63,981 nucleotides of DNA from Chloroflexota bacterium (lineage in GTDB: Bacteria; Chloroflexota; Limnocylindria; Limnocylindrales; CSP1-4). The stretch lies in contig PMBR01000117.1 in the NCBI GenBank assembly GCA_003152995.1, forward strand, positions 1-63,981, written 5' to 3'. The translations under genes were made by a program, and so were the position numbers. Below, one piece after another: positions 12,958 through 53,351 of this stretch. Every line of letters begins with the position of its first letter. Position 1 is the stretch's first letter. The notes under the pieces are model-generated. The model did not search any database and was not told the DNA's origin. It saw nothing but the letters and a program-made list of their open reading frames with translations.

Positions 12958-12973
12958 CAACCGGCCGGCGTCT

Positions 12974-24273: not shown

Positions 24274-24408
24274 GGTGAGGGCAGGCGACGGGCGGCATCA
24301 GTCGCGACGAGCCCCCATCGACATGACCGAATCAAGCGGCGCAACCAACCTATCTGGGGCCGAAAGTGTCCTAGATTCTTGACGCGGGACAAATCTCGGT
24401 GCGCGCGC

Positions 24409-24663: not shown

Positions 24664-24793
24664 AATAGGCGCGGAGAAAAGCCAGCCGCCGAGCGGCTTG
24701 CGGGCGGCGAGTCATTGTTGGGCCTTTCTGCCAAGGTCTTAGGCCTCGACGAAGGGCTCGACGATCGCGGTGGGAGCGTCCATGAGAAATGGG

Positions 24794-25920: not shown

Positions 25921-26023
25921 CGACCTCTACGACTTCCAGGCCCGCAAGCTACGACCCGAGCCTTTTCGGGCTGCGCCGTTTCCTCAGCGTGCGAGACCTG
26001 CGACCCGGTCCAGCTGCGGATAC

Positions 26024-26581: not shown

Positions 26582-26624
26582 TCGGCCTCCTAGCCCCAGG
26601 GATTGCCCTGGCGAAGTATGGTCC

Positions 26625-32600: not shown

Positions 32601-35600
32601 GTGGGCCTCGATTGCCCCGGGGCTCAAGACGCCAGCGTAGACCGCCACTTCGTCGATTGAGCCTGCCCAATGAGCGCTCGCGTTGCCATCCTGGCCAATC
32701 CGCAGGGCGTGGCTCCCATCGGCGAGGAGCGCGGTGCCGACATAGACGCCCGAGCCGATCTGGATGCCATTGACGTAGATCTCGAAGTTGCCGCCGCCGA
32801 CGGTCTCCACGATGTGATACCAGGCTCCGGGGGCGTACTCGAATTCGGCGTCCGCGGCGGAGTTGAGCCATGCGCCCCCAGTCCCGATGGCGCTGTGGAT
32901 CTCGATCGGGTTGGTCGCGGTCGCAGGCGCTAGCTCGAGGGCGAAGCCATACGAGCCGCTCCCCACGATGGCCTGCTTGGCGGTTGCACTCGTGGTCTTG
33001 ACCCAAGCCTCGACCGTGAAGCTGCCTGAGAGCGCGAGGCCGGAGTTGATCGCAATCGAACCCGAGCTGCCGTTGAAGCTCATGGCCTTGTTGGCATCAC
33101 CCACGAGGGCACCAGGCTGCGCGAGGCTTACGCCGCTGCTGCTGATGGTGCCGGCGTGGTTGCCCGAGCTGGAGTCGGCCGCGGTCGAGCCGCTGGGCTC
33201 ACCAAGGCGCCAGTAGCCGGCGAGGTTCGGCCCGGCCGCCACGACCGTGGAATAGACGGGCTCCGGACTCGTATATGGGGTAATCGTGTCGACCACTTCG
33301 TGGAGCGCGTTGTACGTGTAGGTGGTCCGATACAGTCCCGGATTGCCTGCGGCGACCGAGGCGTAGTACTGGTCGGCGCTCTGGCTCCACAGCGTCTCGG
33401 CGCCGGTCAGCGGATCGGCCAGGTTGTCGACCGCGAGCGCGGCGTTCGTGCCGCGGCGGCTCACGACCTGATTGCCTCCGCCGGTGCTCGTGCAGCCGGC
33501 GGTCTGACAGCGGGTTTCGGTGCTGTAGTGGCCGACGCCATCGAAGGCGTAGCTCGCCATCAGATCGCCAGCGTCGACCGCTGGGGTGCACGCACTCGAG
33601 CTGCACGTCAGCGGCTGGTATTCGTTGAGAGTCGTCCCATCGGGGCTCAGGTCGATGTACAGAGCCTTGGAAGCTGCCAACGCGGGGCCGTTCTGCCAGA
33701 GCACGCGCCTGTAGGTATCCGAGCTCGCGGAGTAGGTGTCCACGACGAGCATGTCCTCGTCGGGACTCGCGGACACATCGGTGATCTTGGTCGGGCGATT
33801 GGTCCCGTCGTACGTGACCATCGTGTAGAAGTTGTTGCCGCTCGATCCCGTGTCGCGAGGGTCGCGGATCTTCCAGAGCAAATTGGAGCCTGTGTATTCG
33901 AACTTGAGACATCCCGATGCGGTGCCAACGGCCGCGCACCCCGTGCCGACGTGTTGCGCCGGGATGACGGTCATGAGGTTGCTGCTGGTCAGATCGAATT
34001 CGGTGGCGCGACCGCTGTGGCTCGTCGTCGAGCCGAGTTCTTCGGTGAATGTCACCTTGCCGCTGGCGTAGGCCACGGCGATGTCGCGCTGCGCCGTGCC
34101 GCTCGAAAGCGCCATGCCATCGGAGGGGGCGTGGATCTTGGTCAGGGTGTAGGCGGCCTGGCCCGACTTGGAGGTGTCGTACGTCCAGTCGAAGGTCGTG
34201 GTCTGGCCGTTGCGATCGACGATGCGCTCCAGGAGGCCATCGAGATTGAAGTAGTGCTGGCTGCCGTCGGCGCCGGTGGCGACGAAGTCCTCGGATCCAG
34301 GGGCGATAAGCGGATCGGCACCGGTCTGGCTTGTGAGGTAGTCGTCGTCGAACAGGGCGTACTGACCGTCATACGCGATGAGCTCGTAACCGGTCAGCTG
34401 CACGTCATCGGGGATAGGGCCATTCGAGGGCGCGGCCCCGGGCGAGCTCGAACCAGGATTGTCGTTGTAGAAGCCGAGAACCTGGCGGGCGTCGTCTTCG
34501 AGATCGCGCGTGACCGGAGTCCAACTCACCGGCAGCGAATCGGAGATCTTGATCGGGTTCGCATAGCCCTTGTTCTCGCCGGCGTAGTAGGTGATGGTTT
34601 GGCTGATGTTGGTGCGAACGTCCTTGATCGTGAAGGCTTGGGCGATCGTTGTCCCGCCGACCTTGCGCCAGTACCAGCGGGCGAACGGGTAGACGTACAG
34701 CGGCGTTGTGAGGCCGCTCACCGTCGGACTGGCCGACAGAGGCGTGATGGCAGTCACCTGGAGCGAGTCCGCGCCGATGGCCTTGTCCGAGCTGTTCAAG
34801 CTTGCGTAGCTGCCACTACCGCCGACAAAGGTGGGCAGGCTGTCGTCGAAAGCGACGCTGCTGCCGGGCTCGAGGGCGGCCCCGTCGAACCAGAGGCTTC
34901 CACCCGACACGTAGCCCGTGATCTCGACCGCAAGCACCAGATACGAGTCGTGGTCGGTAGCAGCGCCAAAGAGGCTCTTGTTGGCGTTGACGTCGTTCCA
35001 GACGTTGCGCTCGTACGGCGTCCAGGATGTGGATATGCCACCGATGTCGGTCTGCCAGTCCATGCCAGCGATCGACCAGGACGCCCCGAAGTTGTAACCG
35101 AACCAATTCTGCGTCGAGGTATTGGTGTCGTAGATGTCGAGCGCGATGCCGGCCTTGTTGTATGTGAGCGAGCTTGTCTTGGCGCTGAAGTCCAGCAGCG
35201 GGTATGAATTGAGGGGAACCTGGGGCGTGATGGCGGCGCTCGTCGTGGAGCGGCTGTCGATCTTGGTCGAGAAGGCGCCCGACGATGCGGTCAAGTGGTC
35301 GTACGTCGGCGGCGAGCTCCAGGCGAGCTTGTTGTCGTCGAACAACGTCCAGCGCGTGCGCGCCAGGGCCGAGGGTGCGCTCGAGATCAACTGGCCGTTG
35401 CCGTCGGCGCCCACGAAATAGCTGTTGCCCGACGGGTCCTGGTATGTGTAGGTGCCCGGCGCGGTCGTGCTGACGTTGAGCCGTTCATCGAAGTTGGTCG
35501 ACCAGCCGCATGCTCCCAGGATCTCGGCGCAACTGGAGATCGCGCCCGAGTCGTACTGGTATGACAGGTTCACAGGGTCGAGGTCGTTGAAGCCCACACC

Positions 35601-38387: not shown

Positions 38388-38514
38388 GATCTCGGGCGAT
38401 GAGTCAGAGCGCGGTCAACTCCTGCCCGGCCACCTCACCCGGAATGGACCGGTTCCGAGTCTAGTAGGTTGCGACCCGCGGGTTAAGGCGATTCCGCATG
38501 CCGGCCGGCGCATA

Positions 38515-38826
38515 GTGGCGGGGGTGGTCTGGGGCTTTCGCCATGCCTTTGCCTGCGAGGCAGTGGGCGAGTCGGGCACGGGCCGCCGCACCACCCTCGC
38601 CGAGATCTACGGTCGTGGCCTCACGATCGAGAATGTCATCCCGGCCCTGCTAGATCTCAAGGCTTACCCGATCCGCAGGTGCCGCCGTGCGACAGTGGAT
38701 CGTCGCGATCCGCGCATAGCGTCGACGCCGGCTGGTGAGCACAAGACGGCCAACGAGCACAAAGCCTCTACTGTCGTTACGCCTGCTCTCCGCCCATCGG
38801 ATCAGGGTTCACTGCCTGGAGCGTAG
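38515..38826 (+). CDS. Possible small protein in the RHS upstream gap
   Basis: Only an ORF with fairly GC-rich third codon positions. No motif, and it overlaps a convergent gene end. Confidence 0.25.
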   Translation: MAGVVWGFRHAFACEAVGESGTGRRTTLAEIYGRGLTIENVIPALLDLKAYPIRRCRRATVDRRDPRIASTPAGEHKTANEHKASTVVTPALRPSDQGSLPGA

Positions 38827-39449
38827 TTGCCTTCCTCGTCGATTACGAGCCACCTGTTGTCGATATGCTGGAGTTCGAGAGTGAAGATCATCGTATTCTT
38901 CGGGTGCGCGACGACCAGCTTGCCGCCGTCCTGTACCTGGGCGATGTCCAGCCAGACGTCCGCCTGTACCGTCGCGGTCACCATGTCACACGGCAGCGGC
39001 GTGCCGACTGCACCCGAGGGATCCGCGGCCGGCACGGCGCTAGCGCAGGTGTCCAGAGACACGATGTCGATACGGCTAACACCAGCGTCCAGGTACCGCA
39101 CGTCGCCGACCATCTGACCATCCAGGTTCTGTGCTAGGACTGTATTCCGTTTGGCCAGTTCGTTTCCCGCAAAATACTTAGCGAGATCGGACCTACCAAG
39201 GCCTTCAATTGTCGCGCGGTCTGCCTGGGCCAACGCCCGGCCCTTGAAGTTGGCCCCGGGCATCGGCGCCATCTGTTGGCTAATGATCGCGTTCTTGATG
39301 GCAAGCCGAATGGGCGCCTCGTCAGGAGCCGCTTTCGTCGCGCTCGGAAACGAAAGCACAATAGCTGCCGCGACCATCGCGGACAAACCAGCTAGCGATG
39401 CGAGCACTCTTCGTGATAGTCGGTGGCGACCCACGGACCACTTGTTCAT
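38802..39449 (-). CDS. Secreted hypothetical protein
   Basis: Signal peptide LASLAGLSAMVAAAIVLSFPSATKA. Confidence 0.55.
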   Translation of the reverse strand: MNKWSVGRHRLSRRVLASLAGLSAMVAAAIVLSFPSATKAAPDEAPIRLAIKNAIISQQMAPMPGANFKGRALAQADRATIEGLGRSDLAKYFAGNELAKRNTVLAQNLDGQMVGDVRYLDAGVSRIDIVSLDTCASAVPAADPSGAVGTPLPCDMVTATVQADVWLDIAQVQDGGKLVVAHPKNTMIFTLELQHIDNRWLVIDEEGNYAPGSEP

Positions 39450-39479
39450 GGCTCTTGTCCCTTCTCTACCGTTTCGAGA

Positions 39480-40112
39480 CTACGGCGTATTGGGATCGAT
39501 GTGGATCCGGGTGATCATCGTCGTCGCCTGGTTATTAGCGTTGTAATCTCCGAGATTCCAAAACGCGTGCTTCCGGGACACGCTGTGCTGGTCGACCAAG
39601 TCGCCCACCCAGCCATTTGGATCGGTGCCATAGCCTACTTGTATAACTGAATGAGACACGCCGTAACGATTTGAGTCGTCCCAGTCGAAGTAGAGGACGT
39701 CGCCGACGCTCACGCCAGACCTGGACCCAGATCCTTGAGTGGGACCGTAAATCCTTGCGAGCCCGCCGTAGGTCTGCCAGTAAAGCCACTGCAGCTGGTC
39801 GAAAGCTATCGACCAGCTGAACGAAGCATTATCCGTACTTGTTCCGCTGACGAACCAGTTCTTCAGCGTGCTCCGATCGCCTCCTACGTACGAGCTAACC
39901 ATCGAGATTCCCCCGGCATGGAGGGCCTGGGACACGAAGTTCGTGCAGTCGTCTCCGGTAAACACGGGGTAACTCGGATTGCTTGTCGCGGCCCATTGGT
40001 CCGCGTATGAGGCGGCAGCGGTTGGGTTATAGGCTAACGTGGCTCGAGGGGCCAACGCCGCTAGGACAAGAGCCACGAGGATCACCCCGCAGCAGTATCG
40101 TGTTCTATGCAC
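39480..40112 (-). CDS. Secreted putative amidase-domain (Amidase_6 / NlpC-P60-like) protein
   Basis: GTG 40112 follows GGGGGCGG. Motifs DDCTNFVSQALHAGG and YGVSHSVIQV, with a candidate Cys/His pair. Confidence 0.65.
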   Translation of the reverse strand: MHRTRYCCGVILVALVLAALAPRATLAYNPTAAASYADQWAATSNPSYPVFTGDDCTNFVSQALHAGGISMVSSYVGGDRSTLKNWFVSGTSTDNASFSWSIAFDQLQWLYWQTYGGLARIYGPTQGSGSRSGVSVGDVLYFDWDDSNRYGVSHSVIQVGYGTDPNGWVGDLVDQHSVSRKHAFWNLGDYNANNQATTMITRIHIDPNTP

Positions 40113-40122
40113 AATCCGCCCC

Positions 40123-40608
40123 CTAATAGTCCTTGATCGAAGAAATCTGGTTGTCCCAGCCCTGGAGGTCGCCTGATGAAACGTCACTCGTGTAGGTGAG
40201 ACACGTGCCCGTCAGTCCATCCCAGCACAATGACCACTTAACGCTGACGCCGTGACTCATGTTGAATGTTTGGAAGCTGGAGATGACGTCATTCCATGTC
40301 GTACACATGAGGTGGCAGCCAGCCCCGAAATTCTCGACCATTCCTCCCAGGTTTGGCCATTGCGCCTGATTGCCACAGAGGAGCATATACCGACCAGTGA
40401 AACTTGGGCTCTCCCATAGCTCGATCCCCGGACCGTAGAAGCATCGTGTATCTCCCGATGAGTACTGCGCCGCACTCGCAATCTTCGGCTCGGCAATAGG
40501 CCGCGCCATCGAGGCAATCGCTGGCGAAGGGATCGATGCGGCGACCAAAGCGGCCACCACCACAGCCCCTCCCCAGCGGAGTCCCGCGCCAGAAGTCCTC
40601 ACGTTCAC
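40123..40608 (-). CDS. Secreted beta/gamma-crystallin-like protein
   Basis: Signal peptide, then Greek-key-like IELWESPSFTGRYMLL...WNDVISS and GDLQGWDNQISS. Confidence 0.55.
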   Translation of the reverse strand: MNVRTSGAGLRWGGAVVVAALVAASIPSPAIASMARPIAEPKIASAAQYSSGDTRCFYGPGIELWESPSFTGRYMLLCGNQAQWPNLGGMVENFGAGCHLMCTTWNDVISSFQTFNMSHGVSVKWSLCWDGLTGTCLTYTSDVSSGDLQGWDNQISSIKDY

Positions 40609-40733
40609 CCTCCTTGAACTGACGGTCGAACAAGCACGAGTTTGAGCAGGTCAGGCTGAGGACATCCCTCCCTCCGGGCTACACCCTGGAGACGACTTCT
40701 ACCGAGGCGATCCGGGGTTCGCCTGGACCGTGA

Positions 40734-41537
40734 CTAGTGAGTTACCTTCTCGGGCACGCCGTTCGAAACAATCTCCGAACCCGACAGCAAGTCGTGTAAC
40801 CCTCGTTTGGACCGGTTCATATGCGTGCTCACCAAGAGAACGGATGACCAGACATATCCCGCTAGGTAGGCCGTCATCCACGGGATCGCGAGGCCGTTGC
40901 TCAGGACAGAGCCAACCGTTGAGGCTGGGGTACTCAGCCATGCGTTTGTCGGCGTACGCGACAACCAGTCAGTTGCGCTGAGGATAACGATAGCGGCGCT
41001 CACCGATGCGAGAGACAGCGATGCCCCAAAGCCGGAGAGCCAGAACCATCGGGAGAGTGCGCCAGAGGCCGTGAGCCTCCCGCGGCCGCTTGCTTGAGCG
41101 ACCGAGAGTCCCATCAATCGTTGCCCCAGGGTGGCCCCTAGCTTCGTCCAGCTGCCAGCGTAATAGAAGCCTGCGAAACCGACGTATGCCAAGAGAATAA
41201 TTGCGACAAGGAGACCGTTCGAATGGAGGAGCGGCGCGCTCACCAATTGGAACGGATGAACTCCGCTGGCGTCCATCTGGGGTTCTGTCTGCGGGACTAG
41301 GCGCATCTGATCGATCGCCAATCCGTTGGGGCCCAGGGCACCCACTACGAGCGCGAGCAGCAAGAACGCGCCGCCTGCAAGCCCAACGATCGCCGAATCG
41401 ACGAACCAGGCGAGTACTCGCCGTCCAATCGATGGTGGGCGCGCTCCACCCGAGTATCTCGGCCTGCGAGAAACATCATCCACCCTGATGCCTCCGTCCC
41501 ACCGCGGTCGCCCAAGGTTCGATCGTAACCGTGTCAA
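40734..41537 (-). CDS. RDD-family membrane protein
   Basis: RRVLAWFVDSAIVG motif plus multiple TM segments. Confidence 0.65.
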   Translation of the reverse strand: MTRLRSNLGRPRWDGGIRVDDVSRRPRYSGGARPPSIGRRVLAWFVDSAIVGLAGGAFLLLALVVGALGPNGLAIDQMRLVPQTEPQMDASGVHPFQLVSAPLLHSNGLLVAIILLAYVGFAGFYYAGSWTKLGATLGQRLMGLSVAQASGRGRLTASGALSRWFWLSGFGASLSLASVSAAIVILSATDWLSRTPTNAWLSTPASTVGSVLSNGLAIPWMTAYLAGYVWSSVLLVSTHMNRSKRGLHDLLSGSEIVSNGVPEKVTH

Positions 41538-41920
41538 GGCCCAATATACACATTTGAGCGCCCGGACAGACTACATCATCCGTTTCGACACTTTCCGGTT
41601 CTTGATGTCGACCAACGGCTCGTGTCTGCCGCGCCTGTGCGGGTCCGAATCCAACTGTCGCCGTTTGAGAAGGTTGCGGGCATCCGCGCGTCGGTGAAGC
41701 ACTTGCACTCTGAATCGAGTTGACCCGGTAGAGGTCAACGTCGTCTCCGGCCGCCTCGCTACGCCCCTCACGAGGTGGTCATCGTGTCCGCGACCCCCAC
41801 AGTCGAGAGTCGAGCCGGTTCATCCGCGACGGGACCGCCCCGTGTTCTCTGGCAATCGCTCCAGCTGGTGCGGCTGCTTGATGGGCAGGGCCATGACTCA
41901 GCCGAAGGGGCCGGCATCGG

Positions 41921-43033
41921 CTACTCCGGGGTCACCGTCCAAGCGCCGTCGGCATTGATCACCAGGAGCATCATCCCCGGCGGCAGCTGAATCTCGCCAC
42001 TGAACTTGCCAATCTCGTTCACCAGCAGGTCTCGGCCGCTGTCGCTGTAACTCCAGACGGCGAAGTTCGAGGAACCTGAGTGCGTGATAGTCGCCGTCGT
42101 GAGCCCGACTATCGGCTCCTGGAGCAGGACAACATCGTCGCCGCGGCCAGTCAACTTGGACACGCCGTCCCACAACCTCGCCGCCTGAATGGGCTTCACT
42201 GTGATGGTCCAAGAACCGCTCGACTCAACCTTGAACGCGACGGAATGCTCGCCCGAACCCGTATCGAAGATCACGGTTCCTGAGTAGTTGCCGATCACGT
42301 TCACCAGGAGGTCGAGTGTCGAGCCATCGGCCCCTATCGACCAGACCACGAAATTGGCGCTGCCACGATTGGCGATCGTGGCAGTCCCGGGCACGTCTTC
42401 CGGGATCGTGAACTTCGGCACCTTGTTGCCCCGCCCCGAGAGCTTGATGGGATTGAAGTCGAGGACGGGCGTCGGTACGGCCGTCGGCGACGGAGCCGGT
42501 GTCGGGGTCGGCATAGCCGTCGGCGACTGGGTAGGCCCGGTGGTCGGCGTCGGTACGGCCGTCGGCGACTGGGTAGGCCCGGTGGTCGGCGTCGGTACGG
42601 CCGTCGGCGACGGCGTGGGTGTCAGGGTCGGCGTCGGTACGGCTGTTGGTGACTGGGTAGGCCCGGTGGTCGGCGTCGGTGCAGTCGCATCGGTTGCTGT
42701 TGGATTCGGAGTCGGGCTCGCGGTCCCCATTGCCACCAGCGCGGTTGGAGTGGCCCCCGCGCTCTTCGGCTTCTGCTCCGTCGCGCCCGCAAACACGATG
42801 GCAGCTACCCACACGGCAGCGAGAGCGATGGACGCCCCAATGCGCAGCCGCCGGTCCTCTCGGACTCGGGCCAGTTTTCCGAGGACCCAGTAGCCTGCAT
42901 CGAACACTAGCGGCCCGTACAGCGCCGCGAACGTAGCGCAGACGAACAGGGCTGCCAGCGCCACTTTCAAGCCGACAGATGCGGACCGCCACTTCGGCTC
43001 GAACCATCGCCAGAACCTGCCACTGATTGGCAT
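41921..43033 (-). CDS. Membrane-anchored protein with a PT-repeat linker and two beta-rich domains
   Basis: N-terminal TM helices, then 14-aa [14 protein letters not shown] repeats, then duplicated [18 protein letters not shown] modules. Confidence 0.6.
42471..42690. repeat. 42-bp tandem repeat array (two perfect copies at 42517..42600, flanked by degenerate units)
   Basis: 'ccgtcggcgactgggtaggcccggtggtcggcgtcggtacgg' occurs twice back to back. Confidence 0.85.
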
Positions 43034-43431
43034 GCGAGCGACCCCTTCTTTAGGTTCGAAGGACGCGACGGCGAACGCCAGTTGCGACCCACGCGATTAT
43101 GCTCGTCCCTCTACCTAGAAGGGGGGCTGATTCGGCGCAGTTCCACGACCTTCGGGCGCGATCGTAGACATCATCGCGGTGGTGCCGGGCCATCAGGGCG
43201 GGCGAAAGTGCTCCGCACGATCAAGCCATAGGGTTGCTCTTGGGGTGAGGTCTGGCCGGTGCCATCATTCGGTCTGCCTCTCCGACGCCTGCCCTCCGCT
43301 GCTGGCCAGGTGGGCCGCCCACTCGATGACGTCGAAGAAGCTTCGTCCGGCCGCCTCGCGGAAGAGAGCCGAAACTGAGAACGTGGGTAGGCGCTCAAGC
43401 GCGGTTGTATTCCGTCACGGCGCCATCTACG

Positions 43432-44601
43432 TCAGTCCGACTCAGGCCCGTCCGCGCTCAGCGGAGCGCCGGAGGCCTCGAGCTCGTCCTCGTCGTCTGG
43501 CGCGGGCGCTGGCTTCTCCGGATAAATCTCGCGGTACAACCCAGCTCCCATGAGTTGGTCGATGGCCCCCACGAACCAGGCCACCGCGTCCTCCGAGTTG
43601 TCGACCAGGATTGCACGCTTCGTCGTCTTGAGGACGGGCCAGCCTTCCACTGGGCGTCCCCAATCAGCGAGCGAGTCGTGACGCTTGGCCCAGTCTCGGA
43701 CGACGCCCCGGACATCGGCGTACTTGGGATCGGCCTCGAGCCAGACGGTCATGTTCGTCTCGCCATCTATAGGCTCGTAACCGTAGGTGACCCAGACGCG
43801 GCGACCGTTGCCAAAGAAGAGCGTCACTCGCCCGTGGGCGGCGAACTGGTTGCGGCACGTTCGCTCAACCCAGTGATTGGGCCAGCGGAACTCGGGCGGA
43901 AACCCCAACTCGCGATGCTCCGGAGCGTCGAGGGCTTCGTTCACCTGCCGGAGCACCGCGAGGGCCTTGCGGAATAAGTGGTAAGCATCTTCGAGCGAGA
44001 TCGCCTCCCGGGCTGAGACCGGCAGCGTCCATTCCTCGGTCATCTTGATCTCCTGCAGGTATTCACGAAGATCGAGCCAGTGCTCACCTGGCTTGTGAGT
44101 GTCCCTGACGGCGTCCGCGATGGCTTGCCAGCGGAGCTGGTGAGGCTTGGCTTCACTGTCCATCGGCTCGGGCGCGAGCAGAACCAGGTCGCGCCGGCTG
44201 TCTGGATGGGCTTCGATGTAGTCTCGGTAGTGTGCCAGCTGATTGCCGCTTAAGCCGGCGTTCACCTTGTTCTCGAACCAGATCTCTCTCCGGGTTTCGC
44301 TGTGGCCCCGTCCGTCTGGTCGGGCGATCGTGAGATGGAGCACCAGATCGATGAAGCCGTAGGAGGGAGCCGCCGCCGAGGCGGGCATCGGCCACTGGGT
44401 GACCGCGGTCACTCGGGCGTGATGGACCTCGTCCTCGTCGATGATCCCCGCCCGGCCGAGGGCAAGAAGAATGGGCTGCGGATTGCGGCGGATCGCCTCG
44501 GCCAGGGCCTCAGTGGTGAAGTTCTCCTGACTTTCGACAAGTCTCTCGTCGCCAGCTCCCGACACCTTGGCGTACCGGAACAGGTGCTCCAGGGTGGACA
44601 T
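43432..44601 (-). CDS. PD-(D/E)xK nuclease-superfamily protein
   Basis: FIDLVLHL ... EIWFENKV gives a D...E-x-K arrangement. 389 aa. Confidence 0.55.
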   Translation of the reverse strand: MSTLEHLFRYAKVSGAGDERLVESQENFTTEALAEAIRRNPQPILLALGRAGIIDEDEVHHARVTAVTQWPMPASAAAPSYGFIDLVLHLTIARPDGRGHSETRREIWFENKVNAGLSGNQLAHYRDYIEAHPDSRRDLVLLAPEPMDSEAKPHQLRWQAIADAVRDTHKPGEHWLDLREYLQEIKMTEEWTLPVSAREAISLEDAYHLFRKALAVLRQVNEALDAPEHRELGFPPEFRWPNHWVERTCRNQFAAHGRVTLFFGNGRRVWVTYGYEPIDGETNMTVWLEADPKYADVRGVVRDWAKRHDSLADWGRPVEGWPVLKTTKRAILVDNSEDAVAWFVGAIDQLMGAGLYREIYPEKPAPAPDDEDELEASGAPLSADGPESD

Positions 44602-44822
44602 CCGACCCCTTCATCGAGATCCGGCCGGCGGCCGAACCGATGAGCCAATCCTAGCGCGCGCTTGCCGGCCTCGTCCCACCAATCGCACGATCGGGTGATC
44701 GTGGCTCGTGTCTGACGAGCCGCTCCACAAGTTCGGGAGCCAGTAGAGCTCCGACGGGCTTTCGCTGGCGCCGCTACCAGCCGCGGGCCTCGCTCGCATT
44801 ATTGCTGACCGGCAGCTGGCGC

Positions 44823-45659
44823 TTATGCGGTCGCGGCAGGCGTCGCACCAGCGCGGTCTCGAGCGTTCACTCGGAGGACCGCAACTGCAGCGGGTAGCAA
44901 AGTGACGACCCCTACTCCGCCCACGACCACGGCAACAGCGAGGGGAACCTCATCGCCGGCGAGCGCCGCAAAAGCAAACCCTCCGACGATGCCCGCTGAG
45001 GTGAGGAAGAGCCAGATGAGCATCGGGAGCGCGAACGCTCCGGCGACCGGGACACCTCGGAGGAGGCCAACGCCGGCCACGACGCACAGCGGCAGGAAGA
45101 GTCCGAGATCGAGGGCATAGACGGGGTTCGTTGGGAGGCCGGCCTTCGCGAGGTCCACGGGCGGAACGCCACTCGTCGTGGCGGTCGCGATCTGCCCCAG
45201 CCAGAGCATCCCAAAGAGGGCCGCAACGAGGAGGAGCACGGCGACCGATGTGCGGCGCGGGAGCCGCCCGATGAGGACGCGGCCGGCGCCAGCGAGGTCC
45301 GCGGAGGACAGGCTGAGCACGAGGCTCCAGACCGCGAGTCCTAGGATCGCGATATAGACCGCGGCGAGCGGGTTCATCACCACGGAGAACGCGAAAATCG
45401 CGTAGTTGTAGACGAGGTAGAGGAGGCCAGCAGTCGCCGCAAGGCGGCCCACGAGCGAGCCATGACGGGCAGTCGCCAGACCCACGACTAGGATCGGCAC
45501 CGCCAGGAACAGCGTCGCAAGGTCAATCCCGCGCGCCTGTTGGGCCCAGAAGGGGACGTCACGGTAAAGACCGCCGATACCAAGTCCGGCCGCCGCGGCG
45601 ACGGCGGCAAGCAGGGCCGCGATCCAGGCCAGCGGGTCGGCGATGGCGAGTCGGTTCAT
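44823..45659 (-). CDS. Polytopic membrane protein
   Basis: 278 aa made up almost entirely of TM helices. Confidence 0.6.
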   Translation of the reverse strand: MNRLAIADPLAWIAALLAAVAAAAGLGIGGLYRDVPFWAQQARGIDLATLFLAVPILVVGLATARHGSLVGRLAATAGLLYLVYNYAIFAFSVVMNPLAAVYIAILGLAVWSLVLSLSSADLAGAGRVLIGRLPRRTSVAVLLLVAALFGMLWLGQIATATTSGVPPVDLAKAGLPTNPVYALDLGLFLPLCVVAGVGLLRGVPVAGAFALPMLIWLFLTSAGIVGGFAFAALAGDEVPLAVAVVVGGVGVVTLLPAAVAVLRVNARDRAGATPAATA

Positions 45660-45882
45660 TGAGACCTCCTGAGAACGCGTGCCTGAAGCTCGTTGTCGCC
45701 AAGGGCGGACGCCCCTCCAGGGTGGGGTTCCGCCGGGCGAAGAGGCAGAGTCGATTGGCCCTCAGCCGGCCCGCTTCGTCAGGGCCTACTGGTCCGGCTG
45801 CCACGATGCCGCGATAGCGTTGCTTTCTCCGGCCAGCTGAGTGACTCATGTGGGCGACCACCTTGTACCCGAGGCGCCCACG

Positions 45883-46818
45883 ATGACCGCTCAACCACTC
45901 CCGGCCCTGACCAGCGGAGACCCCTCCGCCTGGGACCAGGCCCTCTACGCCTTCTTGATAGAGAAGGGCAACCGCTCGGGATCGAAGCGGACGGTCGAGT
46001 CATACAGCCGGATGCTCTGGCCCTTCTTCGCCGAGCGCAGCTTGACGCCTGATCGAGTCAAGCCTGGCGAGGTCCTCGCCTGGGTCCATGGCATCGGCCG
46101 CTCCGGTCGGACACCGTCCTCAACCACGGTCGGTGCGCGGATCGCGTGCCTGTCCTCCTTCTACCGCTTCCTGATCAGGATGGGCCTGGTCGTCAGCAAC
46201 CCCTGCGACGCCGTCGAGCGACCCAGAGCCATTCAGTCCGTTGCCCGGGGATACAGCGCCGACGAGGTGCGACGGCTCCTTGCGGTGGTCCCCGACACCA
46301 TCGCCGGGCGGCGAGACCGAGCCATCCTCCTCACACTCGTTCTGACGGGACGGCGTCGGACCGAGGTGATCAGCCTGAAGGCCGGCGACCTCAGCATCGA
46401 AGGCGAGACGGTCTTCTATGCCTACCGAGGCAAGGGCGGTAAGAGAGGTCGGCGGGAACTCCCTCGCCCGGCCTACGAGGCGATATGCGCGACGCTTGCC
46501 GATGCCGGCAAGGAGCTGGCCTCGATGACTCCGGCCGAGTCGCTCTGGCAAGCCGCCGCACGAGTGGAGGGAGTCACGAGCGGCACGTTCTACGCCAGGT
46601 TCCGCCGATATCTGCAGCTTGCCGGCATGGCCCCGACCGGCATACACGTCTTGCGGCATACGGCGGCAAAGCTGCGGCGAGATGCCGGGGAGTCGATCGA
46701 GTCAGTCAGCCAGTTCTTGGACCACAGTTCGCTCGCGGTCACGAGCGTCTACCTGCGCCGACTGGAGGGTCAGGAGGACCTGACGTGGCGCGAGGTTGCG
46801 GAGGCAATCGGGGTCTGA
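45883..46818 (+). CDS. Tyrosine recombinase/integrase, copy B
   Basis: Same catalytic motifs as copy A. DNA homology to copy A spans about 45813..46818. Confidence 0.9.
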   Translation: MTAQPLPALTSGDPSAWDQALYAFLIEKGNRSGSKRTVESYSRMLWPFFAERSLTPDRVKPGEVLAWVHGIGRSGRTPSSTTVGARIACLSSFYRFLIRMGLVVSNPCDAVERPRAIQSVARGYSADEVRRLLAVVPDTIAGRRDRAILLTLVLTGRRRTEVISLKAGDLSIEGETVFYAYRGKGGKRGRRELPRPAYEAICATLADAGKELASMTPAESLWQAAARVEGVTSGTFYARFRRYLQLAGMAPTGIHVLRHTAAKLRRDAGESIESVSQFLDHSSLAVTSVYLRRLEGQEDLTWREVAEAIGV

Positions 46819-46890
46819 GGCTTGATAAGAATCAGTCGGCCCCGGCGCCTTGCGCCAGGAACTCGCCCAGAATCGCCCACCCAACCAGCA

Positions 46891-47691
46891 TCACAGGCGT
46901 GCCCACCGCTCCGAGACTCCACCGATGATCTGCGGGGGTATGCCGAGTGCTGCGACGAAGTTCGGCTCGGGCACGATGGGCACTCCGTAGTCTCGCGCCT
47001 TCTGCAGAGTGGTCGTCACTTCGTTCGAATCGGCGACGATCAAGACCTGCGTCTTCTTGGTAAGCCGTGGGAGCACTTCGCAACCGGCCCATCGAGCGAG
47101 CATGACCTGAGCGTTTCGGTCGAGTGGCGCGCCGTAGAGAGTGGTCGAGCCCTGTCCGCTAAAGACGACGGACTTTCCGCCCCAAGTCGAGTCCGCTGGT
47201 GTCCGATTGTCGGTCGCCAGCTCCACGATGCACTCGCCCGGCGTCCCTAGGTGAAGAACGACACCCACGCCTCCACGTTCAGACTGGAGCGCGGCATCAC
47301 ATGCCACCGCGGGCGGAGTAGCCCCTGATGTCGCCGCAAGCCAGCGAAAGACCGGTTGATAGCTTGCCGCGTCGGTCCGAGACAGGTAGCCCGCCAACGA
47401 CCAGGTGCCGCCCGCCCACAGGACCACAGCAATCGCGTTGCGGTCGTACTGGTTGGCGGGCTCAGCAACGAGCAGTGCCTTGTAGTAGCCCGGCGGCGGC
47501 CCGGGCATCCCAGGCGGGAGATCGTTTGGCCCGGGCGGCCGCGCAAGCCTCACCGACGCTTGTCGGTAGTACTCGCCGACGACCGGCAGCATCGCGTCGT
47601 CGCGCAAACGGGTGAAACACGTCACGTTGAGGCGGGCGGAGTTAACTCCGCTACCACCGAGAAAGCGCCGTAGGAAACTCATGCCTCGCAC
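46891..47691 (-). CDS. HIRAN-domain / BRCT-domain protein (variable-slot cargo of module B)
   Basis: HIRAN-like VVGEYYRQ...LLVAEPANQYDRNAIAVV...GYLSR. C-terminal BRCT-like GKSVVFSG...TKKTQVLIVAD...KARDYGVPIV. Confidence 0.7.
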   Translation of the reverse strand: MRGMSFLRRFLGGSGVNSARLNVTCFTRLRDDAMLPVVGEYYRQASVRLARPPGPNDLPPGMPGPPPGYYKALLVAEPANQYDRNAIAVVLWAGGTWSLAGYLSRTDAASYQPVFRWLAATSGATPPAVACDAALQSERGGVGVVLHLGTPGECIVELATDNRTPADSTWGGKSVVFSGQGSTTLYGAPLDRNAQVMLARWAGCEVLPRLTKKTQVLIVADSNEVTTTLQKARDYGVPIVPEPNFVAALGIPPQIIGGVSERWARL

Positions 47692-47848
47692 CCTCTAGCA
47701 CCGTGAGCACCCTCAATAACCTACGCGCTTTTGGTCAGTGACGGACGACGAGTACGCACGGACTGACCCGTAGCCCCGGCGAAGAGCCCGCGGTCCGAGG
47801 GAGCGCCAGATAAGCGCCCGATAAGCGGCGACTGCTAGGGTCGGCTCG

Positions 47849-47930
47849 GGTCGGGCTCCGCTCTGTGACCGGGCCGATGCCGGACGACGGTGAGCGAGCC
47901 AGCGAGGGTGATGCCGCAGGCGTCCCGACC
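47849..47930. repeat. 82-bp conserved repeat, copy 3 (homology to copy 1 extends back to about 47800)
   Basis: Same orientation as copies 1 and 2. Lies 158 to 239 nt upstream of the HIRAN-BRCT start codon on the minus strand. Confidence 0.85.
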
Positions 47931-47935
47931 TAGCC

Positions 47936-48727
47936 TTGCCGCGCGACCCCACGGGACGTGGGCCGGGGCGAGACAATGCAGCCGTGACAGGGTCGAGAGA
48001 TCGCGATAGCCATGGAAGCGCTCGCGGGCCGCAGGACCAGCGCCGGCTCCATGACTGGCTGGCGTGGGACGAGTCGGTCAGGCGAGGGCGACGCATTCTC
48101 TCCTTCGATCCGGACTGGACGCCCCGACCAGGCGGCCCTCAGTCCCCCGAGTACATCCGCTGGCGACAGGCCGTCGAACTTCGTCGCCTGCTCGCGGAGG
48201 CCAACCGCGCCCTGATCGAGCTGCACCTGCCGGCCCTGTTCCGCGACTACTGGATCGCCTGCTTCCTAGCGCCCTACGAGCGCGATGGTCTCGAGGTCAT
48301 CTGCGATCCGCAGCCAACCGGGGACGTGACCACCGAGCGCGTCTACCCGCCGCCCTCGGAGTCGTGGTTCGACGCGGGCATCGACTACTCCACCGCTCCG
48401 GCCACACTGCTGATAGAGGGACCAGCCGCGCTCGCGAGCAGCCTCGTCCTTCGTGCCGCGGTTCGTCGGGCGCTGGAGAGCAAGCGACGGTCGGGCTTTG
48501 CGGCCCAGCACCCGCTCATGCGGACGCGGCAGATCGGAGCCGTGGCCGAGGATCGCACCGCCGCGAGGGGCCGGCCGAACCCTGCCAAGGAGGTCGCCAT
48601 CCGCCGTGCGCGAGCATGGGCAGCAGGCGGAGAGAAGCCCGAGTTCATTGCGCTTCGCCTCACCGAGCGCGGGTATCAAGTGTCCGCGCGAACCGTGCGG
48701 CGGTGGCTGGACGTGCCGCCAGAATAG
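47936..48727 (+). CDS. Hypothetical protein with C-terminal resolvase-type HTH
   Basis: PEFIALRLTERGYQVSARTVRRWL. The N-terminal limit is uncertain. Confidence 0.5.
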   Translation: MPRDPTGRGPGRDNAAVTGSRDRDSHGSARGPQDQRRLHDWLAWDESVRRGRRILSFDPDWTPRPGGPQSPEYIRWRQAVELRRLLAEANRALIELHLPALFRDYWIACFLAPYERDGLEVICDPQPTGDVTTERVYPPPSESWFDAGIDYSTAPATLLIEGPAALASSLVLRAAVRRALESKRRSGFAAQHPLMRTRQIGAVAEDRTAARGRPNPAKEVAIRRARAWAAGGEKPEFIALRLTERGYQVSARTVRRWLDVPPE

Positions 48728-48811
48728 GGAAATTGACACGCCGTCTGGGCAGCACGAGGGGCCGAAGCCGAAGGCATAGGCGACGATCAGGCCCCCGGAT
48801 AATCTCGCCTC

Positions 48812-49027
48812 ATGGCCGCACGAGACACCGCGACACCAACAGCAGCCGGCGCTACTCGACATGAGACGCCGGCGCCCGGACTCGCCCTGCCTCGTCGTCG
48901 ACTTGCACGACCCCTCGACATCGAGCATGTGTATGTCCCTGACCGCGACGTCATGGCGGCAGCCCTCCGGATCGTCCTGGGACTTCCCCGCCGCTTGCCC
49001 GACGGTCTGCATGGGAGACCTCGATGA
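48812..49027 (+). CDS. Small conserved ORF translationally coupled to LSR-B
   Basis: ATGA overlap with the LSR-B start. C-terminus RRLARPLDIEHVYVPDRDVMAAALRIVLGLPRRLPD is homologous to 14375..14557. Confidence 0.6.
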   Translation: MAARDTATPTAAGATRHETPAPGLALPRRRLARPLDIEHVYVPDRDVMAAALRIVLGLPRRLPDGLHGRPR

Positions 49028-50778
49028 GCGCGATGACAACGGCGGTGGCGGTCCGGCGGGTGGCGATCTACATCCGAGTCAGCAGCGAGGACCAGGCGGA
49101 GCGCGGCAGCATCAAGACCCAGGAGGACGAGATCCGGCGTCGCCTGGAGCGCGAACCCGGAGTGGTCATCGTCGGCGTCTACTCCGATGAGGGCGTGTCG
49201 GGCACGGTGCCCCTGGCCGAACGTCCGGCTGGTGCCAGGCTCCTGGCCGACGCCCGGGCGGGACTGATCGACGAGGTCTGGGTCTACAAGCTCGATCGCC
49301 TGGGCCGCGACCTCATTGGCCTCGCGATCGCCCGCCGCAGCCTCGTGGAGCTTGGCGTCCGCCTGGTCAGCGCCCATGAGGGTGAGCCCGACGAGTTCAT
49401 GTTCGACATCCAGTCCGCGGTCGCCGCCAACGAACGCCGGGTCTTCCTGCGGCGCTCGGCCGAGGGGATGAGCCGGGCGGCGCGAGAAGGTCGCTATACC
49501 GGCGGGATCGTGCCGTTCGGATACCGCGTCGCCGGCGAGAAGCAGAAGGCGCGCCTGGAGCCCGACACGGCCCCGCTGTGGGGCGATCTCTCGGCGGTTG
49601 ATCTCGTGCGCCGCATCTACAACTCGCTCGGTCTGGAGCGCCGGAGTTGCCGCTCCATCGCAGCGGAGTTCAACGCCCTGGGCATCCCGACCCACTACTC
49701 ACGCGATCATCGCGAGGTCAAACGGGGAGAACGCAAGGAGCGCACCCAGGGCCTCTGGCGGGCCGGGCGTATCCGGAACCTGGTCGTGAACCCGATCTAC
49801 AAGGGTCTCCTCCAGTACGGCCGACGGAGTGACAAGGCTCGCGAGCCCATCCCGGCTCAGATCGAGCCCCTCGTGTCTGAGGACCTTTGGCAGGCTGCTC
49901 AGCAGACCCTGGCTGCCAACCGGACCATCGCCAAGAACACCCACCGGCGCTACCTGCTCAAAGGCGTCATCCGGTGCGGCCTCGACGGGTTGACATACGT
50001 TGGCTCGCAGGGCCGCCAGGGTGTCGGCTGGTATCGCTGCGGTGGTCAGCTGGTCGAGCGCGGTCCCCTCCCCGGCCGGTGCTGGGGTCAGTCGATCCGG
50101 ACCGACGTCATCGAACCGCCGATCTGGGACGACATCGAAGCCTGGCTTCGCAACCCTGGCGACATCCTCCAAACGCTCGAAGCGGAGATCGAGCGGGTCC
50201 CGGACGTGCCCGACGAGTCGATCGCCCTTCGCCGTGCCCTCGAAGAGGTCGAGCAACGCCGGCGACGGCTCGTCTCCCTAGCCGAGGAGGGCCTTCAGAC
50301 GACCGCTGAGCTTCGTCCCGAGTTCGCTCGCCTGGCGGGCCAGCGCGAGGAGATCGAGGCACGCCTGACTCGTCTGGCGCCCCGGCCGCAGGAGCCTGTG
50401 CCGGCGGAGACCATCGACCTCCTCTCCGATGTGCGTACTCGCCTGGAATGCGGACTCACCGACGAGCAGCGCCAAGAGATCGTCCGGCTGCTCGTCTCGG
50501 TCGTCGTCCACACCGACACGGGCGCGGACGGCAAGAAGCAGGCCAGAGCGGTGGTGGAGTACCGGTTCCCCAATGGCGTAGATGGTGTAGTCGATTTCTC
50601 CACGGGCATGGATTCATCGCGGCGACGAGTTGGAAACGTGACGGGAAGACCGCCGCTCGGCCCACCCGGGCGATCGCGACCTGGCCGTCCTCCAGCGGCT
50701 GTCGCAGCGCCTCAAGAGCACCGCGGTCGAACTCGGGCAACTCATCGAGGAAGAGGATTCCGTCGTGCGCCAAAGTGA
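49024..50778 (+). CDS. Large serine recombinase (LSR-B) with a chimeric C-terminal tail
   Basis: YIRVSSEDQ catalytic motif. About 60-65% identity to LSR-A over the stretches aligned by eye. From about 50610 the reading frame is antisense comM sequence (about 56 aa). Confidence 0.85.
50597..50618. other. Island/chromosome junction (attR-like hybrid site)
   Basis: tctccacgg-gcat matches the left arm and spacer of the LSR-A palindrome. The following ggattcatc is comM coding sequence (antisense of ATGAATCC). Confidence 0.6.
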
Positions 50779-51715
50779 CCTCGCCCGGGGAAAGGCGAGG
50801 GCCGCCGCCGACCATGGCCGCATACGAGATGGTGTGGTGAGGCGATCGGAATGGGCGCCGTCTGATCAAACCTCGTATCGGGACCGTGCCGGCAACAGAG
50901 GCGATGATCGTCGCCACCCGCGATTCCTCGTCGTCGAGAGGGGGCAGCAATCCCGGAATCGTTCTGGCCAGAAGAGTCTTGCCCGATCCGGGCGGGCCGA
51001 TCATCAGCAGACAGTGACCGCCGGCCAGCGCCACCTCCAGGCCCCGTCGAGCCTCCAGTTGGCCTCGTACCTCCGCCAGGTCAGGCGCCGCGTCGCCGTC
51101 CTCCGACGCCTGCCCCACCGCCGAGCAATGAGCGTCTCCGTCATCGGCCTCGAGGCGCACCGCGTCCGATAGTTCGACGCGTGGCGGCATCGTTCGCGTT
51201 CGCCCGTGGCGGCTGGCGCGCAGCAGCGCCGCCGCCTCTGCCAGTGTGGCCGCCGGCACGACCTCGACGCCATCCGCGAGCGACGCCTCAGCAGCGCCAT
51301 CCGCAGGCACGATCACGCGCCTGACGCGCCGCCTTCCCAGCGCCATGACCATCGGCAGCAGGCCCGGCACGGGGCGCAGGTCCCCGCCCAGCGACAACTC
51401 GCCGAGCACCGCCCACCTGCCCGTAGCCTTGACCTGCTCCGAACCGACCATGATGCCGAGGGCTATCGCCAGATCGAGCGACGCGCCACCTTTGCGCAGG
51501 TCGGCGGGCGCCAGGTTCACCGTAATGCGCCGTGGTGGGTAGTCGTAGCCGCTGTTCCGGATCGCCCCCCGGACTCGCTCCCGCGCTTCCTGCAAGGCAG
51601 TGTCCGCGAGCCCAACGATCGTGAAGCCCGGCAGACCTGGAGCGACATCGACTTCGACGCGAACGATGCGGCCATCGAGGCCGTGAACGGTGGCAGATAG
51701 CAGTGACGCAAGCAC
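50601..51715 (-). pseudogene. comM: comM/yifB (Mg-chelatase-like ATPase), 5' fragment truncated by island insertion
   Basis: N-terminus [15 protein letters not shown]...[22 protein letters not shown], Walker [18 protein letters not shown], ending ...[11 protein letters not shown], where family members continue CG. The last 47 aa of the track ORF are unrelated island sequence. Confidence 0.85.
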
Positions 51716-52064
51716 ACCGGCGACGCTACGCCTGGGGAATCAACTCCGGCTTATCTGAGCCTTACGGAAGCGGCGCCCCGGCGCCCAGACCGCAACGAGG
51801 CTCGCCGTCTCGGTGGTCTGCGAAGGCGCATGGAAGGCACGATCGCGGTCGCCTACAACCTGCGGGTCCGGACTCGATCGATGGCATCCGCCGACTCCTG
51901 GAGACCAACCTGACGACATCGCGCCGCGGGCAGCCACCCGTCCGAACCGGCCAGCGCGACGATCCTCCCACCCGATTGCATGGGCCTTCTACCGGAACAA
52001 TGATCCGCCCGGCGGTGCGGCCACATGCGTTTGGCGAAACTCGCGCCGTTGGAGGATTCCTCGA

Positions 52065-53351
52065 ATGGCTGCCGAACCGCTCACCGAACCCATCGTTCTA
52101 GCCGATGCCGCTCCCGAAGCTCCACTAGCTGAGCCGTCCCGCTCGCGGCGCTCGATCCTCGGGGCCGGGCTCGCAGGCCTGGCCGGTCTGGTTCTCGGCT
52201 CGCTCGGGAGACCGCAAGCGGCTGACGCAGCGGCGGGTGGCTCGCTCGTGATGGGTGCGGCCAACAGCGCCGGCACGACGAACACGAGCCTCGCGACCAA
52301 CTCGACCGGCACAGCCATGTACGTCACCCAGGCCGGCACCGGCACCGCCGTTCGAGGCATTGCCAACAACGGCATCGCCGGCTTCTTCACCAGCTCGAAC
52401 GGCTCGGGTGTCAGCGGTGTCGTGGCGAACAACACCAAGTACGGCGTGTACGGCGCTAACGACGCGTTGACCAACGGTGGCGGCGCCGCCATCCGGGCCA
52501 GCGGTGAGCAGAACCACGGTCTCGTGGCCACCACGGCCAGTACCTTCGCCTATGCCATCAAGGCGACCAACACGAACCCGGGCACCGGCTATTCGTCGGG
52601 CGCTGGCATCCGTGCCCTCGCGGGAAACGGCACCGACGCCGACATCGATGACCTGGCGGTGCCTCACGGCGCCGGGGAGTTCTGCGGCGGAAATGGCATC
52701 GTGGCCGTGTCCCATGGAGGAGCGGGGAACGGCGTCTCGGCCTACAGCGTCTCAGGAGCTGGCGTCTACGGTTCCTGCGGCACGGGGTGGGCCATCTACG
52801 GTTCCAGCGGCTCGGGGTACGGCGTCTACAGCAACGGCAACGCGGGGGTCTCCGGCAACCTCGACGTCATCGGCACGCTGTCCAAGGGCGGCGGCTCGTT
52901 CAAGATCGACCATCCCCTCGATCCCGCGAACAAGTTCCTCTATCACAGCTTCGTCGAATCGCCGGACATGCTCAACGTGTACAGCGGCACGGTCACGCTC
53001 GATGCCAGGGGCGAGGCGACTGTCAGTCTGCCGGCCTGGTTCGACGCCCTCAATCGAGACGCTCGGATCCAGCTCACAGCGGTCGGCGAGTTCAGCCCGC
53101 TGTACGTCAAGTCGGAGATGCACGGGGGCTCCTTCTCGATGGCTGGTGGCAAGGCTAGCCAGCGGGTGTACTGGCAACTCACCGGCATCCGACAGGACGC
53201 TTGGGCCAACGCCCACCGCATCCCGGTGGAAGAGGAGAAGCCGGCAGCCGAGCGCGGGCTCTACCTCCATCCGACCGAGCACGGCCAGGCTGCCGCCAAG
53301 GGTATCGACGCCGTCCGCAACGCCGCGATGAAGCCGCACGCGGGTAAGTAG
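52065..53351 (+). CDS. Tat-exported Gly/Ala/Asn-rich beta-helix-like protein with a conserved C-terminal domain
   Basis: ATG 52065 after GGAGGA. Twin-arginine motif SRSRRSILGAGLAGLAG. Repeats GV-G-A-N. C-terminus GGGSFKIDHPLDPANKFLYHSFVESPDMLNVYSG. Confidence 0.6.
   Translation: MAAEPLTEPIVLADAAPEAPLAEPSRSRRSILGAGLAGLAGLVLGSLGRPQAADAAAGGSLVMGAANSAGTTNTSLATNSTGTAMYVTQAGTGTAVRGIANNGIAGFFTSSNGSGVSGVVANNTKYGVYGANDALTNGGGAAIRASGEQNHGLVATTASTFAYAIKATNTNPGTGYSSGAGIRALAGNGTDADIDDLAVPHGAGEFCGGNGIVAVSHGGAGNGVSAYSVSGAGVYGSCGTGWAIYGSSGSGYGVYSNGNAGVSGNLDVIGTLSKGGGSFKIDHPLDPANKFLYHSFVESPDMLNVYSGTVTLDARGEATVSLPAWFDALNRDARIQLTAVGEFSPLYVKSEMHGGSFSMAGGKASQRVYWQLTGIRQDAWANAHRIPVEEEKPAAERGLYLHPTEHGQAAAKGIDAVRNAAMKPHAGK

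Follow-up and report, generated by a model that had tools for sequence, protein, structure and literature searches.

Integration of tandem large serine recombinase elements probably split comM of a Candidatus Limnocylindrales bacterium at an attachment site in its N-P-C-P-C-G codons, with attP inside the recombinase gene

We analysed contig PMBR01000117.1 of a Chloroflexota bacterium of the order Limnocylindrales over its entire length of 63,981 bp (hereafter, the window), in which comM (yifB), a DNA-repair and competence gene encoding an ATPase, meets a gene for a large serine recombinase (LSR), here called LSR-B. The results indicated, with a probability that we put at roughly 85%, that comM of Candidatus Limnocylindrales has been split by integration of LSR elements at a bacterial attachment site (attB) over its N-P-C-P-C-G codons, that two related elements, A and B, stand there in tandem, and that the attachment site of the elements (attP) lies inside the LSR gene. 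An original prediction, made from the letters of the window, had already proposed a site-specific LSR element in comM, with the LSR gene bordering the comM fragment and the missing 3' part either beyond the window or lost, and we found the same junction at no fewer than 12 independent loci. Coordinates are collected in Table 1, and contigs from other genomes are designated by L and a number.

The window copy of comM is a 5' fragment. In the annotated open reading frame (ORF), Pfam matches were obtained for ChlI (residues 20-138) and for Mg_chelatase (residues 212-372, corresponding to profile positions 1-161 of 207), while the Mg_chelatase_C lid (PF13335) gave no Pfam match in this ORF; intact ComM/YifB orthologues carried ChlI, a complete Mg_chelatase and Mg_chelatase_C. 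The closest homologues were YifB-family ATPases of Candidatus Limnocylindrales (75-98% identical), and the ComM of L001 (P0004, 529 aa) shared 90% amino acid identity with the window protein over residues 1-372. Intact orthologues were mostly 520-530 aa long, with identities reported in the range of 80-90%, and because they carry PF13335 the family does not naturally end at NPCP, a possibility that the original prediction had held against itself. Blastn against the intact relatives L001 and L005 showed collinearity from window position 61358 down to 50601, where comM homology stopped after ...TGCCCGTG, the next base being G in the window and C in the relatives. Over its remaining 48 codons, the comM ORF reads the LSR-B ORF (49024..50778) in reverse complement. 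The ORF, blastn and alignment thus bore out the earlier description of a normal ComM match up to N-P-C-P-C-G followed by the antisense of the LSR-B 3' end. The statement that the window holds no ComM C-terminal segment also held, since tblastn with five full-length ComM proteins matched residues 1-372 only; the best stray match to the comM 3' part, at 5262-5567 (E = 0.65, about 30% identity), was unlike a fragment of a 90% identical orthologue and was rejected as chance level. The genes dprA, Big_5 and topA, which lie downstream of comM in the relatives, were absent from the window.

Alignment to the close relatives with intact comM (L001, L005), a check suggested with the original prediction, showed where homology to comM ends. 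The prediction had placed the cut between NPCP and CG. A visible break is indeed present there (50601/50600, where NPCP is followed by W), but the crossover is most likely 6-7 nt upstream, at the dinucleotide CA (50607-50608) in the first Cys codon. CA was invariant in all 39 distinct attP/attL sequences and in all 15 attR junctions, and in attP-form sites the inverted repeat is centred on it. The base 5' of CA follows the element (G, T or A) and was assigned to element DNA because it varies with the element, T creating a TGA stop in comM of L014 and L021. The base 3' of CA was assigned to host DNA because it changes together with the wobble base of the Pro codon in the host. We placed the exchange at CA on the basis of these two neighbouring bases. 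The hexamer CACGGG (50601-50606) is element DNA that is identical in attP and attB, so comM homology seemingly extends to 50601 and the earlier cut fell after NPCP; the CCGTG after TG and the 'CP' of NPCP come from island DNA mimicking comM. The intact attB reads GCACGGG CA CGGGTTCAT. In the 15 junctions the P arm was conserved as TGTAGTY-N6-TnCACGGn, followed by CA and then by nGGRTTCAT... (antisense comM), and within the window this P-arm pattern occurred at 50581-50605 only. One other att-like copy, at 12520 (an attB-like 17-mer with three mismatches), was within chance expectation and was discarded. As to the two junctions of one insertion, attR is in the window and attL was seen only in other genomes (L026-L029). 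We also observed two attP subtypes, one with a P' inner arm palindromic with P (TCCGTGAAG) and one with an inner arm mimicking comM (CGGGTTCAT), the latter giving about 20 bp of identity between attP and attB.

The split recurs in many other genomes. Among the 120 best ComM cluster representatives, 18 passed from ...AAMNPC(P)C into unrelated short tails (EWELHTESGK, KWELHQETGR, ESALHRESGR), and a further 10 ended at or within two codons of the cut site. Where neighbouring DNA was available, a convergent LSR gene abutted the comM 5' fragment (L006-L010, L012-L017 and L021). Such LSR-comM junctions included megabase long-read contigs of metagenome-assembled genomes (MAGs) labelled Dehalococcoidia, whose comM is about 48% identical to the Limnocylindrales gene. 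A search with the C-terminal 157 aa of ComM recovered the other half of the picture, namely fragments with foreign N-termini up to ...HG, followed by CPCG, or up to ...MNPCPCG. The attL contigs L026-L029 carry island DNA followed by the comM 3' part and dprA, and the island DNA beside comM 3' in L026, L027 and L029 was about 90% identical to window 16134-16200. The ParB-methyltransferase gene adjoins attL in L026 and lies farther inside in L028. Cargo on the attL side varies, and in L028 (7216-9894) an 892-aa SIR2_2 protein, a candidate defence gene product, is encoded beside the comM 3' fragment. In L018 and L019 (Dehalococcoidia-labelled MAGs, LSR 3' ends at about 11540) the B' side is a short comM-like remnant, which reads ...NFMMGAAMNPC followed by tRNA-like sequence in L018 and VAATNEC in L019, suggesting decayed or secondary targets.

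An island of more than 50 kb with its left end outside the window, one of the two options in the original prediction, was correct as to extent, but a single island was not what we found: two related elements stand in tandem in the foreign DNA and meet at a hybrid site (P_A-CA-P'_B) at 16110-16153. The homologue closest to LSR-B (P0345, with a conserved C-terminal tail described below) is encoded on contigs L030-L032, where the genes run tyrosine recombinase, 66-aa ORF, LSR, AAA_25, ParB-methylase. L030 matches the right backbone of element B on the left of its core and the left backbone on the right of its core (Table 1), and because its divergence from the window is equal on both sides, 16133 and 50606 are the two ends of one unit; other elements (L033, L026) matched the 16.1-20.5 kb backbone at only 75-81%. 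Element A shares the right-end module of B, with tyrosine recombinase genes 83.6% and LSR genes 66% identical in nucleotides and the same intergenic element. A second copy of the tail-coding pattern was not found in the window. GC content was 0.61-0.69 throughout the window and does not mark the island limits.

A single island of more than 50 kb with two LSR paralogues, in which 16110-16153 would be an unused internal attP of LSR-A and the left end would lie off the contig, is unlikely. It would agree with the window holding neither a comM 3' part nor a second junction, and with the identical LSR-A/AAA_25 arrangement in about 10 contigs, which implies a stable configuration. However, it would place the partner of the right end of B beyond the window, whereas in L030 an LSR-B copy of 93% identity runs straight into a copy of 16134-20476 of 94% identity. 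Moreover, A and B each have a complete right-end module, and the left-backbone genes at 16.2-20.5 kb adjoin comM 3' in other genomes. We consider it similarly improbable that the comM 3' part, perhaps together with dprA, was deleted after insertion, leaving a decayed remnant that could not be excised. Neither comM 3' nor dprA is in the window, and L010 and L018 do look partly decayed or rearranged; but the contig breaks off within the island at a tandem repeat of 150-bp units, a place where assemblies typically stop, the reading frame of the comM 5' part is uninterrupted and 90% identical, neither LSR gene is disrupted, and attL forms that keep comM 3' and dprA are the commonest P' context in metagenomes (26 of 39 loci). 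The repeat (150-bp unit, five copies, 88% matches, window 1-750) overlaps an ORF at 431..1063 on the minus strand and probably explains why the assembly stopped at the left end. A metagenome assembly chimera of chromosome and unrelated element, imaginable in principle for a short-read metagenome contig whose att sites share 8 nt (CACGGGCA), can be dismissed because the A/B and B/comM junctions were assembled independently, about 10 contigs per junction, drawn from several samples, reproducing them at 99.9-100% identity, because the identical 584-aa chimeric LSR-B ORF stands on 10 contigs and the same architecture in more than 12 diverged loci, including megabase long-read MAG contigs, and because the shared stretch is far below the assembler k (names such as k141_ indicate k = 141).

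In this comM-targeting LSR family, attP sits within the 3' end of the recombinase ORF. LSR-A and LSR-B both matched Pfam Resolvase (PF00239), Recombinase (PF07508) and Zn_ribbon_recom (PF13408), and AlphaFold2 predicted long helices at 388-453 in the C-terminal domain, as expected of an LSR with an inserted coiled coil. The two proteins were 55% identical up to ...FRFP..VV.F.TG, i.e. ...F(S/F)TG. At 16110-16153, two 20-nt arms that are 80% complementary and separated by 4 nt make up an inverted repeat, as they do at the counterpart in L030, and the site has the form expected of attP, an imperfect dyad of about 40-50 bp with a shared central non-palindromic dinucleotide. It lies inside the LSR-A coding sequence, 26 codons before the stop, and the stop codon TGA overlaps the ATG of the AAA_25 gene (ATGA, 16209-16212). 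A non-exhaustive literature search returned no description of attP within a serine-integrase ORF.

Past the crossover, the full-length LSR carries a conserved tail, NYTTVRRVIELPVGR, and the island DNA beside comM 3', read in the LSR frame, encodes NYTTVRRVIELPVGR(Q/R). Differences between elements in this tail-coding DNA fall at third codon positions. Among the best 120 LSR-A homologues, 29 ended in ...TG-x5-NYTTVRRVIELPVGRQKVAVG, and most of the others had antisense-comM tails of arbitrary length, such as TGTGSSRR followed by a stop, or TGTGSWPR.... When 27 tail-bearing proteins were aligned (mean column identity 66%), 12 of the 15 positions in the tail (532-546) were invariant or nearly so, a conservation that is indicative only, as we had selected these proteins by eye because they have the tail. 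Scanning metagenomes for the TVRRVIELPVG coding pattern yielded 39 loci, comprising 26 attL (preceded by antisense comM 3') and 13 with an LSR-type P arm; third codon positions varied among them, while positions 1-2 were conserved in the flanking N, Y, T and R codons, which lay outside the scan pattern. AlphaFold2 predicted the tail as a beta strand (residues 533-542) with modest confidence (pLDDT about 60); the linker before it (521-532), which matches the inner att arms, was of low confidence. Codons 529-584 of LSR-B, on the other side of its junction, are accidental read-through. The length of such a substitute tail depends on the host allele: LI before AAMNPC gives TGA and a stop 6 codons past the core (L006-L009), whereas the LV allele of the window lacks that TGA and the LSR-B ORF continues for 56 codons to 50778.

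We observed how the junction is built and that it recurs, the three site forms attP, attL and attR, and a B-like element whose two ends are joined. According to the mechanism that we favour, LSR elements would integrate site-specifically at attB over the N-P-C-P-C-G codons, with strand exchange at CA 50607-50608, and the LSR-B gene would come to converge on the comM 5' fragment (attR). Excised or in tandem, an element would encode the complete LSR, including the conserved tail of about 20 aa, and the LSR stop would overlap the AAA_25 start; integration would swap this tail for whatever antisense comM encodes. To judge from the sequences, LSR-B probably catalyses this integration, and excision at CA would be expected to restore comM exactly. 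Canonical serine integrases recombine only attP × attB. The hybrid P_A-CA-P'_B would need attP_B × attR_A (or attP_A × attL_B), reactions that canonical serine integrases do not perform, or else cointegrate insertion.

Several points weigh against this reading. The comM 3' part and the left end of element A are off the contig, so the attL of the array itself was unseen, and forming P_A-CA-P'_B requires attP × attR (or attP × attL) or another route, as just described. In addition, L030-L033 could be tandem arrays instead of circles; none of them had a terminal overlap, and L030-L032 had no terminal direct repeats. Finally, no candidate for a recombination directionality factor was identified.

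Table 1. Features of the split comM locus and of elements A and B (window coordinates unless another contig is named)
Feature	Coordinates	Strand	Details
Host-derived 5' comM/yifB part	50609..51715	-	codons 1-369, through ...AAMNP
Annotated comM ORF	50456..51715	-	419 aa; extends to 50456 across island DNA
Most likely crossover dinucleotide CA	50607..50608		TG of the first Cys codon TGC in N-P-C-P-C-G on the comM strand
attR (P_B arm - CA - B' arm)	50586..50629	+	TGTAGTCGATTTCTCCACGGG CA TGGATTCATCGCGGCGACGAG
LSR-B	49024..50778	+	584 aa; codons 1-528 element-encoded, codons 529-584 (50608-50775) antisense comM
LSR-A	14554..16212	+	552 aa; codons 527-552 (IREEVNYTTVRRVIELPVGRQKVAVG) beyond the crossover, on the left end of element B
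Hybrid attP-like site (P_A - CA - P'_B)	16110..16153	+	TGTAGTTAGTTTCTTCACGG G CA T CCGTGAAGAGGTGAACTACA; core CA 16131-16132
Element B	16131..50606		34.5 kb (34,476 bp with one core copy), complete; left backbone 16133-20476, right backbone 44686-50606
Element A, partial	1..16130		at least 16 kb; right-end backbone 10872-16130; left end off contig
Match to L030, left of core	48890-50609		93.4% identity
Match to L030, left of core	44686-46816		89-93% identity
Match to L030, right of core	16134-20476		93.9% identity
AAA_25 ATPase	16209..17564	+	Pfam; first gene on the P' side
ParB_N + N6_N4 methyltransferase	17561..18802	+	Pfam; second gene on the P' side
Tyrosine recombinase, element B right backbone	45841..46818	+	Pfam Phage_integrase
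Tyrosine recombinase, element A paralogue	10899..11876		self-blast
Element B cargo	about 20.5-44.7 kb		RHS/LamG toxin, PT-HINT fragment, amidase, RDD protein (Pfam)
RHS-repeat/LamG protein	26625..38387	-	3920 aa
N6_Mtase/MmeI-like protein, element A cargo	1954..4959	-	1001 aa; Pfam
Non-coding element of about 125 nt	47795-47930, 12825-12957, 13263-13352; L006 14270-14404; L010 13943-14071; L033 8808-8934		between tyrosine recombinase and LSR genes

The backbone of these elements consists of LSR, tyrosine recombinase, AAA_25 ATPase and ParB-methyltransferase genes. The order LSR, AAA_25, ParB-methylase was also seen in the attP-form contigs L030-L033, and a tyrosine recombinase gene also lies upstream of the LSR gene in L006, L010, L030 and L033. 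For gene calling, a strict GC3 filter was dropped, as it lost too many real genes. Capsid, portal, tail and terminase genes were not detected in the element B ORFs by Pfam, or by PHROGs on 10 unassigned ORFs, a weak negative given that many ORFs were unannotated; L028 gave a faint Terminase_6C match. Conjugation genes were likewise not detected by Pfam or PHROGs in the element ORFs, many of them unannotated, and no transposase was found by Pfam in the 32 window ORFs (30 of them in the island), which does not class the island as Tn7-type. The best LSR match among annotated phages was 32% identical (Paenibacillus phages), with phage WO at 24% and no close phage; an IMG/VR scan with LSR-B found one relative at 26% identity, and a plasmid collection searched with the AAA_25 protein gave only matches of about 30% identity. 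We treat A and B as integrative elements.

Within the cargo of element B, a separate PT-HINT (pretoxin HINT) ORF follows the RHS protein, and this region (25165-38387, minus strand) resembles a polymorphic-toxin locus that has an orphan toxin cassette. In element A, the 1001-aa MmeI-like protein may be a restriction-modification enzyme of type IIL, and the plus strand at 1350-1880 encodes a protein of 176 aa that has a C4 zinc ribbon of the topoisomerase type. Between the tyrosine recombinase and LSR genes we observed a non-coding element of about 125 nt, with paired CAGATAAGC repeats followed by GGGTCGGGCTCCGCTCTGTGACCGGGCCGATGCCGGACGACGGTGAGCGAGCCAGCGAGGGTGATGCCGCAGGCGTCCCGACCC, which was 87-92% identical between elements whose flanking genes share 67-79%. 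It had no Rfam match, its fold energies were no better than those of shuffled sequences on either strand, and it may be a protein-binding or regulatory site. On the chromosomal side, an insertion of about 1.8 kb (51716-53570) separates the comM start from the response-regulator/ParA-like gene, where the relatives L001-L010 have only 90-150 bp. Its ORF at 51813..53351 on the plus strand encodes a 512-aa Gly/Ala/Thr-rich protein with no Pfam match; the counterpart in L081 is 579 aa long, and no gene was called there at the position of the window's response regulator. A 120-bp stretch upstream of the comM start (51782-51904) was 79% identical to L026 6501-6622, which lies inside an unrelated comM island.

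In SCCmec-type composites, elements with Ccr serine recombinases stack in tandem at one site and leave internal hybrid sites. The window likewise has related LSR-mobilised elements in tandem with an internal hybrid site, but the target is an internal comM site instead of the orfX/rlmH 3' end, the LSRs belong to another clade, and the gene lies differently with respect to att. LSR targeting of comM is already documented: Mg-chelatase/ATP-dependent-protease homologues were the target of 12.4% of predicted site-specific LSRs, and competence genes were enriched among LSR targets (Durrant et al. 2022, PMC10083194), while sr1WO of phage WO integrates into the Wolbachia Mg-chelatase gene (PMC9203015). 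As in those systems, the LSR gene here is at the element edge, the insertion is inside the Mg-chelatase/comM coding sequence with gene fragments on both sides, and many diverged LSRs share one target gene. Unlike them, the host is a chloroflexotal lineage (Limnocylindrales and Dehalococcoidia-labelled MAGs), and unlike the phage WO type, the nearest phage LSRs are only 24-32% identical and no phage structural genes were found. These LSR precedents (PMC10083194, PMC9203015) are closer than the AbaR islands offered as an analogue in the original prediction, which serve poorly: AbaR/AbGRI islands, in which comM is also interrupted by a large island, are Tn7-like transposons (PMC11472951), whereas the junction here has an LSR with attP/attB/attL/attR anatomy.

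An attP inside the integrase ORF has been documented for tyrosine recombinases, namely IntP/IntX of Mx8 (PMC6070905) and the archaeal SSV-type suicidal integrases (PMC8371274). The elements described here resemble both in that attP lies within the integrase ORF and integration yields a new gene 3' end, but the enzyme is a serine recombinase, making this an analogy and not membership. In the window LSRs only the last 26 codons or so are exchanged, compared with an attP within the int ORF in the SSV type (PMC8371274). The window thus adds a Chloroflexota case with a modestly unusual architecture, and the additions to the known picture are the true crossover position, the tandem A/B structure and a recombinase gene that spans its own attP and has a conserved tail.

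For the host, the comM fragment ends just past the sensor-1 region (AAMNPC); the Cys-rich motif, the arginine-finger region (SGPLRDR) and the lid are missing from it. In AAA+ proteins, loss of the Cys-rich motif, arginine finger and lid makes a functional hexameric ATPase unlikely, and because all three are lost here, ComM is predicted to be inactivated. In the relatives, dprA starts 3 nt after the comM stop, which suggests a comM-dprA operon, and because of this spacing the insertion probably also separates dprA from the comM promoter. Inactivation of comM by mobile elements lowers transformation in Acinetobacter (PMC11472951), and the published view of the LSR/Mg-chelatase systems is that disrupting competence limits further gene transfer (PMC10083194, PMC9203015).

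The placement of attP inside the LSR ORF could conceivably be a built-in state switch, although we regard this as doubtful. Were it true, a full LSR, complete with the conserved beta-strand tail (NYTTVRRVIELPVGR), would be encoded only while the element is excised or in tandem, and that state would put AAA_25 and ParB-methylase in one operon with the LSR through the ATGA overlap. On integration the LSR would lose its tail and change in activity or directionality, and the replication module would fall silent; excision would restore comM and comM-dprA co-transcription exactly, making a reversible switch of recombination or competence. In Listeria, phage excision from comK acts as a reversible switch. 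For a serine integrase, a tail exchange of this kind was not found described in the same non-exhaustive literature search.

Nothing here overturns current knowledge. The tandem A/B arrangement raises the possibility that these LSRs, unlike canonical serine integrases, use attR (or attL) as a secondary target, and the tail beyond the crossover raises that of a feedback of integration state on the recombinase and on the replication genes of the element. The natural attB, attP, attL, attR and hybrid sequences form a matched set for a diverged LSR clade and could be tried as integrase/att pairs. For an uncultured lineage of soil and peat, these findings point to a hotspot: in about one fifth of the closest Limnocylindrales ComM representatives, a single LSR family has split the gene, always at the same codon.

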